A stretch of DNA of 64,000 bases, taken from an uncultured Pelagibius sp. GTDB lineage: Bacteria > Pseudomonadota > Alphaproteobacteria > Kiloniellales > Kiloniellaceae. Position 1 is the stretch's first letter; each line of letters starts with the position of its first letter. The notes below the pieces were generated by a model. That model had not been told where the DNA came from. It was given only the letters and a program-made list of their open reading frames with translations, and ran no database searches. The stretch is taken from NCBI GenBank assembly GCA_964472095.1, contig CAYYIV010000022.1:4314-68313 (forward strand), read 5' to 3'. The translations under genes were made by a program, and so were the position numbers. This document shows, in pieces, positions 30,549 to 34,378 of the stretch.

Positions 30549-32354
30549 GTGCAGGGCCCGGCCGCAGAGCGCCGGGGCGTGACGCCCTGGCGCGCGGCTT
30601 TCACCCTGCTCGCGCTCGCCTCGGTCGGCTTCCATCTCTGGCTCATCTTCGCCGGGCTGATCCCCAACCTGGTGAGCCGCCCGCTCCACCTGATGCTCGC
30701 CCTGCCCTGGGTCTTCATCGCCGCACGCGAAGAGAACGCGCTCGCCCGCTGGGCCGGCTGGCTGCTCTGCCTCGCCGGGCTCGCCGGCTGCCTCTACATC
30801 ATCGTGAACCTGCACGCGCTCGACGACCAGTACGGCAGCCTCAAGGGGCCGCTGCAATATGCGCTGGCCGCCGTCCTCATCGTCACCGTGCTGGAGATGG
30901 CGCGGCGCGCCATCAAGCTGGCCCTCCCCATCGTCGCCCTCATCGCCCTCGCCTACGGGCTCCTCGGGCAGTACCTGCCGGGCCAGTTCGGCCACCCTGG
31001 CATCCCGGTGAACTCCTTCCTCGGCACCCTGACGATCGCCGAGGGCGGCATCTGGGGCGAGCTCACCGGCGTCTCGGTGAACGTGGTCGCCGTCTTCGTC
31101 ATCCTCGGCGGCTTCGTCGGCGCCGGCGAGGGCGGGGCCGGCTTCATGGCGCTGGCGACGAGTCTCGCCGGGCGATTCCGCGCCGGCGCGGCCAAGGTCG
31201 CCGTGCTGTCCTCGGCCTTCTTCGGCTCGATCTCCGGCTCCGCCTCGGCCAACGTCGCCTCCACCGGCGCCATCACCCTGCCGGCTATGAAGCGACTCGG
31301 CTATCCCCCCTCCTTCGCCGCCGCTGTCGAGGCGGTCGCCTCCTCGGGCGGCCAGATCATGCCGCCGCTGATGGGCGCCGGCGCCTTCATCATGGTGGAG
31401 CTGCTGCGCCTGCCCTACACGGCGATCATGGCGGCGGCGATCCTGCCGGCGATCCTGTTCTTCTGGGCGGCCTGGTGCGGCGTTGACCGCTTCGCCCGGC
31501 GCTACGGCCTCAAGGGCCTCTCGCGCGAAGAGCTGCCCGACCGCGCCACCCTGATCGGCACGGTGCCCTTCTTCCTGGTGCCCTTCGGCCTGCTGCTCGC
31601 CGTGCTGTTCCTGACCGGCTACACGCCGCAGTACGCCGCCGGCCTCGCCATCTTCGCCGCCGCCGCGCTGCTCGTCGCCGACCGCCGCGGCCGGATCTCG
31701 CTGCGTGACGGCCTGCGGCGCTTCGAGGGCGCCTGCAACGACGCGGCGCGGCAGATCGCCGCCATCGCCGCCATCATCCTCTGCGCCGGCATCGTCATCG
31801 GCGTGCTGAACCTCACCGGCCTCGGCGTCAAGGTCACCTCGGTCATCATCGCGCTTTCCGGCGGCGAGCTCTGGGGCGCGCTGCTGCTGACCGCGCTCGC
31901 CTGCCTCATCCTCGGCATGGAGGTGCCGACCACGGCGGCCTATGTGATCTGCATCTCGGTCGCCGGGCCGGCGCTGCAGGAACTCGGCCTGCCGCCCCTG
32001 CAGGCGCACCTCTTCGTGTTCTGGTACGCGCTCTTGTCGACCATCACGCCGCCGGTCTGCGGCACGGTCTTCATCGCCGCCGGCATGGCGCAGACGCCCT
32101 GGGTGCCGGTGGCCGGCCAGGCCATGCGCCTCGGCCTCGGGCTCTACCTGGTGCCGCTCGCCTTCGTCGCCAACCCGGCGCTCATAGCGCCCGACACGGC
32201 GCCGCTATTGGCCCTGCTCGCCCTGGCCAAGATCGGCCTGGGATTGTGGCTGCTCAGCCGCGGTCTCATCGGCGCCGGCGATCCGCTGTGGCAGCGCGCC
32301 GCCGCGCTCGCCGCCGGCGGCGCCGCGATCTTCGCCTTTGGGGTGGCTGCGTAG
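30549..32354 (+). CDS. TRAP transporter fused (DctQ-DctM type) permease
   Basis: It is a long polytopic protein directly after the TAXI gene, with SSAFFGSISGSASANVASTGAITLP and PPLMGAGAFIM. The start is uncertain: a GTG at 30549 lies 8 nt after GAAGAGG, and the track ORF extends to 30399 inside the TAXI gene. Confidence 0.82.
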   Translation: MQGPAAERRGVTPWRAAFTLLALASVGFHLWLIFAGLIPNLVSRPLHLMLALPWVFIAAREENALARWAGWLLCLAGLAGCLYIIVNLHALDDQYGSLKGPLQYALAAVLIVTVLEMARRAIKLALPIVALIALAYGLLGQYLPGQFGHPGIPVNSFLGTLTIAEGGIWGELTGVSVNVVAVFVILGGFVGAGEGGAGFMALATSLAGRFRAGAAKVAVLSSAFFGSISGSASANVASTGAITLPAMKRLGYPPSFAAAVEAVASSGGQIMPPLMGAGAFIMVELLRLPYTAIMAAAILPAILFFWAAWCGVDRFARRYGLKGLSREELPDRATLIGTVPFFLVPFGLLLAVLFLTGYTPQYAAGLAIFAAAALLVADRRGRISLRDGLRRFEGACNDAARQIAAIAAIILCAGIVIGVLNLTGLGVKVTSVIIALSGGELWGALLLTALACLILGMEVPTTAAYVICISVAGPALQELGLPPLQAHLFVFWYALLSTITPPVCGTVFIAAGMAQTPWVPVAGQAMRLGLGLYLVPLAFVANPALIAPDTAPLLALLALAKIGLGLWLLSRGLIGAGDPLWQRAAALAAGGAAIFAFGVAA

Positions 32355-32357
32355 CCG

Positions 32358-32365
32358 GTTGCGCC
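32358..32365. repeat. Left copy of the 8-bp target-site duplication GTTGCGCC
   Basis: It is identical to 33917-33924 and immediately flanks the GTAAGC terminus. Confidence 0.8.
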
Positions 32366-32423
32366 GTAAGCATCCGAAGGAGGCCGCCTTGCCAAGTGAG
32401 GCGCGGTGTTGAGAACCGTCCTT

Positions 32424-32549
32424 ATGGACAGTCATACGCGCAGTGCCCAGGTCGAGCGGCTGGACGTGGTGGAGACGGGTCGGCGGCGACGCTGGTCCGA
32501 GGATGAGAAGCTCAAGATCGTGCTGGAGAGCCTGCAGGCGCCCCGGCAA
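32424..32549 (+). pseudogene. IS66 TnpA (orf1) N-terminal fragment
   Basis: MDSHTRSAQVERLDVVETGRRRRWSEDEKLKIVLESLQAPRQ matches the conserved (I/V)E(V)xTGxxRRRRWSxEEKxRIVxES start of IS66 TnpA. Similarity stops abruptly at about 32549. Confidence 0.7.
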
Positions 32550-32722
32550 GCGCGCCCTTGCCCGGCAGCCGGCGCAGCTGGTCCTCCAGCCAGGTCTTGA
32601 AGGTTGTGAGCCGCGGCCCGCCCCCGTCGGCGTTCGTCGGGCGGGCGTCCGCGAATGCGGGCCTCGATGTCGTAGAGTTCGCCGATCCGTTTGAGGGCTT
32701 CCCCGGCCAGCAGCCGCAGCGT
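32540..32722 (-). pseudogene. IS66 transposase (TnpC) internal fragment, inverted relative to the tnpA fragment and frameshifted
   Basis: Minus-strand reading gives LLAGEALKRIGELYDIEARIRGRPPDERRR, then after a frame change TFKTWLEDQLRRLPGKGALAGA. This matches the conserved TnpC segment (..EAL.RI..LY.IE..IRG..P..R...R......L..F..WL...L..L..KS.LA.AIRY). A stop codon lies just upstream, and the fragment is truncated at both ends. Confidence 0.65.
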
Positions 32723-32906
32723 CTACAAGAGCGCCCCGAGTTGCGTGAGCATTGGCGGGGGACAGTTGCCGATGAGCTGCTAAGGCTCACCATAACGAAT
32801 TTACAATGAACGCAAATGGAAGCTCAAGTGCTTGATAACTAGGCCCATGTCTAAGATAAACAGTTCTCACATCAAGTGGTTCAGGCGAACCGGAGGGTAG
32901 TCCACG

Positions 32907-33800
32907 GTGAGAGCCAACGCGCGAAATTTCGACGTCACCGGCTTCGAGGCCCGAAAAATGTGGGATGAGATTGCCCGGTCAGGTGAGGATACGGTCGCCG
33001 TCGCACGGGCGAGCTACGGGGCCGGCGGAAATGCCCGCCACCGTTTCCATGCCGTCGCCTGGCTAACGTTCGATGCTCGGTTCTCGGCCGAGGCCCGCGA
33101 GTTTGCAGCCGAGCTTCTTGACGACCGCTCGAGCAAGGTGGTGGAGGTAGCGTCACGCGCGCTTGCCTGGGGCTGGGACGTCACCCTGCTTTCCCGGATG
33201 CGGAAAGCAGCCGAGCGAACGAACGGGGCGAAGCGTGCCGACATTGAGGCCGCGATTGCCGCGACTGAAGTTGGGAATCCGGACCTGTTCCTCGATCGCA
33301 CGGGCGGTGGAAACCTTCACATGTTTGTCGCAGACCATGACTGGCGGGAATTGCGGGGCGGTCTGATCCGAGTTGCTCAACCTCGACACGTCCCCGCGCT
33401 TTTGGACATTGCGCCGGAAGGCTCACCGTATCGCGTTCCGCTGGTCGGCTGCGAACCTCCTCTGAACGAACAGGATTTGCGCGCACTGATCGATGCGAAG
33501 ACATGCTGGATAGTCGGGGCGCCGATCACCGGCAACCTCGTCGCGCAGATGAGGGGCAGTGACTGGTCGGTCGAGAGCATTGCCGTGACCGAGCGAGAGC
33601 AGGACAGTGCACTCTGGTGGCAACTCGTGGGATTCGCCGAGCAAGAGGGCCGGCGGCGTGGCCTCGAACAGATCGTCCTAAATACGCGAGCGCGGGCGTG
33701 GCCTGACCATGAGGCATTCGGCCGCCACGGTTACCGCGAGGCCGACCGGTCGGGCGACGAGAACGGACTCGAAGCGGTGTTTTACGAGAAGGCACTTTGA
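32907..33800 (+). CDS. Hypothetical protein with a GNAT-like C-terminal region, passenger gene of the IS66 derivative
   Basis: This is a 297-codon ORF with a GTG start; an internal Met at codon 17 is possible. Third-codon positions are visibly less G/C-biased than in neighbouring genes, and an AT-rich spacer precedes it (32780-32906). The C-terminus WWQLVGFAEQEGRRRGLEQIVLNTRARAWPDHEAFGRHGYRE...AVFYEKAL resembles an acetyltransferase fold. The N-terminal half is helical-repeat-like. Confidence 0.55.
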   Translation: MRANARNFDVTGFEARKMWDEIARSGEDTVAVARASYGAGGNARHRFHAVAWLTFDARFSAEAREFAAELLDDRSSKVVEVASRALAWGWDVTLLSRMRKAAERTNGAKRADIEAAIAATEVGNPDLFLDRTGGGNLHMFVADHDWRELRGGLIRVAQPRHVPALLDIAPEGSPYRVPLVGCEPPLNEQDLRALIDAKTCWIVGAPITGNLVAQMRGSDWSVESIAVTEREQDSALWWQLVGFAEQEGRRRGLEQIVLNTRARAWPDHEAFGRHGYREADRSGDENGLEAVFYEKAL

Positions 33801-33916
33801 CCGCGCTTGAACGGCATAACCACGAGCCTAACGTTCGCGGCCTTCCTCCGGCCATCATAGGCCATCCGTCCTCACGTGCGCACGCGACAACCACGCGGCC
33901 TTTGTCGGATGCTTAC

Positions 33917-33924
33917 GTTGCGCC
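33917..33924. repeat. Right copy of the 8-bp target-site duplication GTTGCGCC
   Basis: It is identical to 32358-32365 and directly follows the ...GGATGCTTAC terminus. Confidence 0.8.
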
Positions 33925-34015
33925 TGCCTCCAACGAATGTTCCGAGTTGGCGCTAGGCGCAGAAGATTGCTCCTCTACCCTGGCAGTCCCTTTTAATGGC
34001 GGGAGGAGTCCTGTT

Positions 34016-34297
34016 ATGGCAATGGCGGCTGGCACGGTTCAGGAAGACAACGAGCGCACCCGCGTGACGCTGTGGCGCTTTCCGCCGCGAGGCGAGACCG
34101 GTTTCCACCGCCATGAGCTCGACTACGTCATCGTGCCGCTCACCACGGGGCCGCTGACGGTCGTCGACAAGGACGGCAAGGAGACAACAGCCGCGCTGAC
34201 CGCCGGCGTCTCCTACTTTCGCGCAGCCGGCGTCGAGCACAACGTCATCAACGCCTCGGACGCCGACTTCGCCTTCGTCGAAGTGGAGTTCAAGTAA
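34016..34297 (+). CDS. Small cupin domain-containing protein
   Basis: The ATG at 34016 is preceded by GGGAGGAG. FHRHELDYVIVPL...YFRAAGVEHNVIN shows the cupin motifs. Codon bias looks native. The upstream part of track ORF 33797..34297 is not coding-like. Confidence 0.7.
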   Translation: MAMAAGTVQEDNERTRVTLWRFPPRGETGFHRHELDYVIVPLTTGPLTVVDKDGKETTAALTAGVSYFRAAGVEHNVINASDADFAFVEVEFK

Positions 34298-34303
34298 GGA
34301 AAC

Positions 34304-34378
34304 TGGCTGGGGCGGCAGGATTCGAACCTGCGAATGCCGGTACCAAAAACCGGTGCCTTACCACTTGGCGACGCCCCA
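34304..34378 (-). tRNA. tRNA-Gln (anticodon UUG)
   Basis: The reverse complement reads TGGGGCG TC GCCAAGTGGTAAGGC A CCGGT TTTTGGT ACCGG CATTC GCAGG TTCGAAT CCTGC CGCCCCA G CCA. It is a 75-nt cloverleaf with an encoded CCA and close to the E. coli tRNA-Gln layout. Confidence 0.93.

Follow-up and report, generated by a model that had tools for sequence, protein, structure and literature searches.

A 1,551-bp unit in the genome of an uncultured Pelagibius sp. (Kiloniellaceae) is very probably a transposed and now non-autonomous derivative of an IS66-family insertion sequence (IS) that carries captured DNA as cargo. The unit occupies positions 32366-33916 of the 64,000-nucleotide stretch of contig CAYYIV010000022.1 that was analysed here (hereafter the window), and is flanked on both sides by the 8-bp sequence GTTGCGCC. 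An earlier note on this DNA, prepared without database searches, had described an IS66-family derivative that lacks a working transposase, and this description is borne out by the presence of GTAAGC-type ends, an 8-bp duplication, and true remnants of tnpA and tnpC.

The ends of the unit are those of an IS66 insertion

The left terminal inverted repeat (IRL; GTAAGCATCCGAAGGAGGCCGC, 32366-32387, + strand) begins with the IS66-type tip GTAAGCATCCGA and is identical at 19 of 22 positions to the reverse complement of 33895-33916. This latter segment is the right repeat (...GCGGCCTTTGTCGGATGCTTAC), which together with ~80 nt of subterminal sequence makes up an IS66-type right end at 33816-33916 (+ strand). 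Further matches to the 22-nt inverted repeat numbered zero both in the 64-kb window and in 100 shuffles. The left repeat resembles the left repeats of IS66 elements from Bradyrhizobium (GTAAGCCTCCGAGGAGAGCCGCCTTGCC) and Bosea, and IS66 relatives with GTA[A/C]GC[A/C]TCCG... ends are present in Alphaproteobacteria. Scans of viral contigs for the right-end and left-repeat patterns yielded 0 matches. The unit thus combines the two features by which IS66-family ends are recognised, namely GTAAGC-type terminal repeats and an 8-bp duplication; alphaproteobacterial members of the family carry ~22-bp repeats and generate 8-bp duplications (PMC3281130).

The two copies of the putative target-site duplication lie at 32358-32365 and 33917-33924, and both they and the inverted tips are located exactly where the earlier note had placed them. 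The left copy starts 3 nt after the stop codon (TAG, 32352-32354) of a TRAP (DctM) permease gene, in agreement with the insertion point proposed previously. The sequence GTTGCGCC is not rare, with 8 copies in the window versus 6.4 expected. The signal is that both copies touch the repeat tips exactly, for which we estimate a chance probability of about 5e-5 at this base composition. The unit was very probably inserted by IS66-type transposition (DDE, with an 8-bp staggered cut) and now encodes no transposase.

Two independent Logan assemblies that cover the same site (L002 and L003) are 100% identical to the window in sequence and across both junctions, which argues that the structure is not an assembly chimera or a mis-assembly. 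The GC content is 0.52-0.65 inside the unit, with a value of 0.52 at 32700-32999, compared with 0.70-0.74 in the flanks, and this difference points to a foreign origin.

The interior holds remnants of two IS66-family elements

The segment 32366-32549 (+ strand) represents the left end of an IS66 element, here called B, and includes the left repeat, a leader and the initial ~48 tnpA codons, which begin at GTG 32406 or ATG 32424 and run to ...ESLQAPRQ. The + strand open reading frame (ORF) from 32406 reads MLRTVLMDSHTRSAQVERLDVVETGRRRRWSEDEKLKIVLESLQAPRQ and then enters unrelated sequence that is tnpC antisense. The tnpA piece (32406-32549) matches positions 1-23 of 113 of the NCBIfam profile IS66_ISRel24_TnpA (NF047595, E = 4e-4), so that the TnpA-like start recognised earlier is upheld and extends over ~48 codons. 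With residues 4-33 of the IS66 TnpA of Bosea vaviloviae this piece shares 80% identity, and with an IS66 TnpA encoded on plasmid p195_1 of Bradyrhizobium sp. 195 it shares 90% amino acid identity. Over the left end (element positions 16-189), the DNA identity with the p195_1 IS66 is 87% (range 86-87%).

In the opposite orientation (~32541-32722, - strand) lies an internal tnpC fragment of a second IS66 element, here called A, which corresponds to approximately residues 355-420 of a 528-amino-acid TnpC. The minus strand encodes LLAGEALKRIGELYDIEARIRGRPPDERRR and then, past a frameshift, PRLTTFKTWLEDQLRRLPGKGALAG. When these two parts are stitched together, the resulting 62-amino-acid piece matches positions 246-305 of 387 of the NCBIfam profile transpos_IS66 (E = 2e-8) and scores 27.6 bits with the Pfam profile DDE_Tnp_IS66, above the gathering threshold of 23.1. 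The two profiles thereby substantiate the frameshifted, opposite-strand tnpC piece of ~60 codons that had been noticed in the sequence, which also aligns directly to residues 362-389 of the 528-amino-acid Bosea TnpC. The frameshift is a 14-nt deletion between CGGCCCGC repeats (~32613-32621), of a type typical of replication slippage, and is present in the window but not in a related metagenome contig, L019. Alignment with the tnpA of a plasmid relative (L007) and with the tnpC fragment of L019 reveals that the junction of truncated tnpA with inverted tnpC (32538-32551) contains a shared microhomology, GCCCCGGCAAG.

The two pieces have markedly different affinities. The tnpC piece, as represented in the window and in L019, is just 39% identical to the TnpC of the same Bradyrhizobium element whose TnpA is 90% identical, and its best plasmid-borne TnpC match reaches 59% identity. 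The disparity between 90% and 39% against one element indicates that the pieces derive from two different IS66-family elements, B and A. On these sequence comparisons, the interior is best described as a chimera of two IS66-family elements plus captured DNA, and not as one rearranged IS66. The gutted, rearranged interior of the earlier note is therefore correct with respect to gutting, but not with respect to the rearrangement of a single element.

An intact tnpA is absent from the element, as is an intact DDE TnpC of about 500 amino acids, of which ~60 inverted and frameshifted codons remain. The reported lack of tnpB likewise stands, in that a tblastn search with Bosea TnpB gave noise alone (E > 1). 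Elsewhere within the 64-kb window, neither an intact IS66 nor any other IS66 sequence was found. A candidate third IS66 piece, in which residues 90-174 of Bosea TnpC matched the antisense strand of the passenger gene (tblastn, 30% identity, E = 0.004, 1.5-kb subject), was dismissed as an Arg/Pro-rich antisense artefact in which the zinc-finger cysteines are not kept.

The cargo includes an intact gene for a predicted GNAT-fold protein

The leftmost captured cargo is a stub of a polyprenyl-synthase-like gene (MLTQLGALL*; 32723-32752, - strand), which was recognised by comparison with the metagenome contig L010 and with the proteins P0139 and P0140 (PF00348). This stub is followed by an AT-rich region (32753-32906, + strand; about 52% GC) and by the passenger gene (32907-33800, + strand; 297 amino acids), both of which match the AT-rich spacer (GC 0.52) and the 297-codon ORF delineated previously. 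The last ~55 nt of the AT-rich region are kept even in a chromosomal homolog. At the other side, the passenger ORF ends 116 nt from the right tip of the unit, and the IS66 right end is fused ~15 nt past the passenger stop codon. Similarity to an IS-free homolog (contig L011) spans window positions 32853-33815, and its end at 33815 indicates the right edge of the captured DNA, such that the ~100 nt at 33816-33916 are IS66 right-end sequence.

The passenger is predicted to be a GNAT-fold protein with a helical-repeat N-terminus, and it belongs to a rare family. Only 10 relatives were found among 5.8 billion clustered proteins, and none of the homologs resides on a plasmid. Distant homologs (54-74% identity) occur in chromosomal contexts that lack IS66 ends (L005, L011, L012 and L014). 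When genome contigs were scanned with the passenger protein, the sole match was a 56%-identical homolog in a Rhodobacter metagenome-assembled genome, also without IS66 context, and a scan of metagenome contigs returned one short contig (L009). The ratio of nonsynonymous to synonymous substitution rates (dN/dS) against the distant homologs is 0.17-0.20, which argues that the passenger is a real gene. The passenger ORF of the earlier note is thereby upheld as a genuine gene.

A model generated by AlphaFold2 from the 10-sequence alignment (mean pLDDT 76.7) contains a confident helical-repeat domain at approximately residues 12-150 and a C-terminal alpha/beta domain. A Foldseek search against the PDB matched this C-terminal domain to GNAT acetyltransferases with probability 1.0 and target-normalised TM-scores of 0.63-0.75, including 1yvo, 2fia, 9mto, 4jwp and BAR. 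The window protein reaches 14.6 bits with the Pfam profile Acetyltransf_1, for which the cut-off is 20.7, whereas its homologs P0006 (31.9 bits) and P0008 (26.9 bits) pass. In the loop expected to bind coenzyme A, residues R249, R250, R251 and G252 are invariant. This GNAT gene has remained intact and could be expressed.

Two observations were made on contig L011, which carries the 74%-identical GNAT homolog. A 5S rRNA gene (L011:1682-1797, - strand; Rfam 38.5 bits) lies ~150 nt downstream of this homolog, and inspection by eye suggests that a short direct repeat, TTTCTAGTCGTATC, is present on both sides of the GNAT gene (L011:399-413 and 1637-1651).

The cargo and right end recur at other sites with different left sides

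The passenger protein belongs to a 90%-identity cluster of 11 members, nearly all of which are encoded on metagenome contigs of 1-2 kb. Six of these contigs were retrieved, five of which reach the right end of the element whereas L009 stops short. The copies that bear a right end show 96-99% identity to the window up to ...CGGATGCTTAC (tip ...GGATGCTTAC), beyond which there is no similarity apart from, at most, one chance base. The sequence that follows the tip is GAGCAACC in L004, CATCAGGC in both L006 and L018 (one site recovered from two samples), GGTTCTCG in L010, and TCTCCACC in L019. The junction between the gene and the right end is kept in all of the 96-99% identical copies whose right end is on the contig. 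There are five different right junctions, the window included, which marks the right end as a true boundary of mobile DNA and makes the fusion of gene and right end older than these insertions. Thus, judging from these junction sequences, the module of IS66 right end and GNAT gene has moved repeatedly and has reached at least five places. Two of the right ends reside within other transposable elements, namely an IS630-like HTH_32 gene in L004 (1125-1394, - strand) and an IS66 tnpC in L019 (48-315, - strand), and such locations point to donor communities in which insertion sequences are clustered and nested.

The left sides behave differently. They are unlike one another in all four distinct copies for which the left is visible (the window, L019, L010 and L006/L018). 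No second copy of the truncated tnpA-tnpC junction was found, and the left repeat together with this junction occurs at the window locus alone, since L002 and L003 represent the same site. For the proposed search for further copies, the outcome was consequently divided, with the cargo and right end present beside four other flanks but the same short tnpA-tnpC form recovered from none. The characterisation of the unit as a cassette-like or cargo-carrying IS fares similarly, in that the cargo and the mobile right end are corroborated but the same short form was not located at a second site.

Contig L010 runs left into 77 codons of a minus-strand ORF whose homologs, P0139 and P0140, are polyprenyl-synthase-like. 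These two proteins align through the point at which L010 and the window diverge, which suggests that L010 holds a longer and older cargo of which the window keeps a stub. The possibility that the left 373 nt of L010 are host DNA joined at a target duplication was ruled out on the same grounds, given that the homologs align straight across. Exactly at the point of divergence, the 8-mer GCTTCTCG (L010:366-373) matches 7 of 8 bases of GGTTCTCG (L010:1564-1571). This match is probably due to chance, because GCTTCTCG is native polyprenyl-synthase coding sequence (LFEKH).

Contigs L006 and L018 depart from the window at ~32862-32870 and are without a left repeat. In both, exact 8-bp copies of CATCAGGC surround a 1,038-bp unit (L006:212-219 and 1258-1265; L018:189-196 and 1235-1242). 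At the left break, the other copies have the native sequence CATCAGGT or CATCAAGT. Most simply, the cargo in these contigs was stranded by a deletion that joined the left target duplication to the internal 7-nt match (CATCAGGT), in which case the pair of CATCAGGC copies would be another 8-bp duplication made by this family of elements.

Contig L019 has exactly the same junction between the tnpC fragment and the cargo as the window. Its tnpC fragment keeps the reading frame and extends a further 65 nt (...GKGALAGAIRYALSRWAALTLYLEDGTVE), after which an IS66 end, ...GGATGCTTAC, interrupts it. The two termini of this contig share a 27-nt overlap that lies within the right-end sequence, as expected of an assembly bounded by repeats.

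The unit resembles known IS66 elements and mobile insertion cassettes

Classical alphaproteobacterial IS66 elements, such as the ISRel24-like elements, the copy on a Bosea vaviloviae plasmid (L015:3501-6285), and ISPpa5a and ISPpa7, share with the window unit their GTA[A/C]GCATCCG... tips, their ~22-nt repeats, an 8-bp duplication, and a TnpA N-terminus that is 80-90% identical. The window unit differs from them in its length (1.55 kb versus 2.7-2.8 kb), in containing ~1.1 kb of unrelated DNA, and in lacking both tnpB and an intact tnpC. A full-length parent with the exact ends of the unit was not recovered, which leaves the suggested search for IS66 relatives only partly successful: relatives with same-type ends exist in Alphaproteobacteria, but an intact parent does not appear among them. 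The Bosea element is complete (2,785 bp, with tips GTACGCATCCGG.../GTAAGCATCCGG...) but distant, whereas the other plasmid relatives (L007, L008, L016 and L017) are truncated or interrupted. A BLAST search of plasmids with the right end gave no credible match. The long contig with the nearest TnpA match (L021; P0026) was considered as a parent and rejected, as it holds only a tnpA remnant beside an integrase gene.

Two further observations concern these relatives. Past tnpC and ahead of the right repeat, the Bosea element contains a fourth small ORF (L015:6032-6256; 74 amino acids, annotated as hypothetical), in the slot that the passenger occupies in the window element. Separately, a search with a 46-amino-acid TnpA query produced 117 matches, all of 30-81 amino acids and several with the same frameshifted tail (...DQMATIIPTGAARS). 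Either shortened tnpA remnants from this lineage abound in metagenomes or the search filters by length or coverage, and we draw no inference from them.

A closer parallel is provided by tIS66 elements, which are IS66 elements with a passenger between tnpC and the right repeat, as exemplified by ISPa75-fosZ, ISPsp18, ISPa120 and ISPa128 (PMC12888890). The window element shares their GTAAGC-type tips, their 8-bp duplication, the location of the passenger directly inside the right repeat, and the existence of IS-free chromosomal homologs of the passenger. Unlike these elements, it has no functional tnpA, tnpB or tnpC, retaining instead 48 tnpA codons and an inverted tnpC fragment of another IS66 lineage, and its cargo is an uncharacterised helical-repeat/GNAT protein rather than a known resistance gene. 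A composite transposon is a poorer comparison, because no complete insertion sequence lies on either side of the cargo.

MIC231 of Bacillus cereus is a mobile insertion cassette (MIC) of the IS231/IS4 family. In keeping with the MIC concept (PMC3281130), the window element has IS terminal repeats around a passenger, the target duplication of its family, and no transposase, and it would depend on a transposase acting in trans. It differs from a MIC in belonging to another IS family and in having kept debris of transposase genes, and its complete form was found at a single site. In these respects it looks more like a decay product than a streamlined cassette. Overall, the unit is a tIS66-derived, MIC-like element of a kind already known.

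The element may have been gutted after it was inserted

Given that the unit is a transposed non-autonomous derivative, we judge the chances to be about even that it was gutted only after its insertion. Under this scheme, the GNAT gene would have come from a lower-GC donor and would have been fixed beside an IS66 right end, in the position of tIS66 passengers. Additional IS66 insertions and illegitimate deletions would have placed the tnpC fragment of element A to the left of this cargo, and a complete element B would then have inserted into the fragment to create an L019-like state. Together, the B left repeat and the distal right end would have bracketed a unit of ~4.2 kb that encoded its own transposition proteins, and this larger unit would have transposed to the site 3 nt past the TRAP permease gene, duplicating GTTGCGCC. 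A single microhomology deletion of ~2.65 kb, extending from codon ~48 of the B tnpA to a point 65 nt inside the A tnpC fragment, would subsequently have gutted the element in place, with the 14-nt slippage deletion as an addition. Contig L019 looks like such a precursor, because one deletion of ~2.65 kb would give the window structure if a complete element B in the + orientation lies to its left. We lean towards gutting after insertion because the search for a second copy of the short form was negative and because each copy has apparently decayed independently on its left. The L006/L018 copy, whose left end is gone although an 8-bp repeat persists, likewise agrees with such decay in place.

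Several findings weigh against this history. The ~4.2-kb precursor is one that we infer and was not seen whole, given that L019 is a repeat-bounded contig of 1.5 kb. The distal right end might, on its sequence, be either the right or the left repeat of its parent. The failure to recover a full-length parent with the exact ends also counts here, as does the fact that plasmid relatives are at most 87% identical, over the left end only. The 169-kb contig runs unbroken through the element, which suggests that a near-identical IS66 is now absent elsewhere in the genome; no helper element is therefore evident, although this absence fits decay as well. The element can be moved only if IS66 TnpA, TnpB and TnpC that recognise GTAAGCATCCGA ends are supplied in trans. 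Lastly, in related Kiloniellaceae the empty site would be expected to read ...GCTGCGTAGCCGGTTGCGCCTGCCTCCAACG..., where GTTGCGCC occurs once. When the downstream cupin protein was looked up by exact match, a query that bears on the earlier suggestion to look for this site in relatives, only the occupied site was returned, from the source genome and two Logan contigs.

A somewhat less probable explanation, and the version of the earlier note, is that the deletions came first, in a donor, and that the 1,551-bp transposase-less cassette was mobilised in trans by an intact IS66, which would make it a true MIC. The intact tips and the perfect 8-bp duplication accord well with this order of events, as do the clear presence of the cargo/right-end module at multiple sites, the recovery of cluster members on short contigs of 1-2 kb as expected of repeated DNA, and the occurrence of IS66 relatives with matching tips in Alphaproteobacteria. 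However, the truncated tnpA-tnpC junction was not found a second time and all visible left sides differ. Furthermore, the window holds no intact IS66, and the contig is unbroken at the element.

It is improbable that the module moves by a one-ended process anchored at the right repeat, in which the left boundary is set by microhomology of donor DNA with the 8-nt target overhang. Were this so, L006/L018, and perhaps L019 and L010, would be cassettes with variable left sides and 8-bp repeats, and the window copy would have captured a real left repeat. The exact CATCAGGC copies around a 1,038-bp unit that has a right repeat but no left repeat would be accounted for in this way, but they are more simply attributed to a deletion that joined the left duplication to the internal CATCAGGT. 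The 7 of 8 match at the divergence point in L010 could be interpreted similarly, yet the 8-mer there is native coding sequence. The overlapping start and end of L019, which look as if the molecule were circular or tandem, are also what repeat-bounded assembly produces. Moreover, a proper left repeat is present in the window copy. To our knowledge, there is no description of one-ended transposition in IS66, a family whose transposition mechanism is still poorly understood; if true, it would represent a mode new to the family.

The remaining explanation, that the unit is not mobile and that its repeats reflect chance or a mis-join in the metagenome-assembled genome, draws on the commonness of GTTGCGCC in the window but is effectively refuted by the shuffling result for the 22-nt repeat, the exact contact between duplications and tips, the significant TnpA and TnpC profile matches, the identical junctions in two other assemblies, and the same right boundary in four further contexts.

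The insertion lies between a TRAP transporter locus and a cupin gene

Upstream of the element is a TAXI/TRAP transporter gene pair on the + strand, which encodes an NMT1_3 binding protein and the DctM-type permease. Downstream are a small cupin gene (34016-34297, + strand) and, directly past it and ~400 nt from the element, a tRNA-Gln gene with anticodon TTG (34304-34378, - strand; Rfam 63.8 bits, also found by ARAGORN). Besides this neighbouring tRNA, the Rfam search identified no family, and a search of the element revealed neither a sigma-70-like promoter nor an intrinsic terminator.

An imperfect hairpin, TGCGCCTGCCTCCAAC...GTTGGCGCTAGGCGCA (33918-33962; -23.4 kcal/mol, z = -2.2), begins within the right copy of GTTGCGCC. 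In the empty site, this hairpin would directly follow the stop codon of the TRAP permease gene, which suggests an insertion at the base of a possible stem resembling a terminator or a repetitive extragenic palindrome (REP).

Implications

The finding leaves current understanding of these elements unchallenged and provides a clean, datable example of how IS debris and a captured gene can become a small, transposable-looking cassette. In this case, pieces of two IS66 elements have been joined by microhomology deletions, and the passenger has been locked to one IS66 end. The metagenome copies indicate that IS66 ends spread the passenger between genomes and that individual copies are then stranded when they lose the transposase or the left end. 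For annotation, the 'hypothetical protein' between the TRAP transporter gene and the cupin gene is to be regarded as horizontally acquired. The element adds an alphaproteobacterial, non-resistance case to the recently recognised tIS66 group, and is a candidate substrate for establishing which IS66 end sequences suffice for mobilisation.

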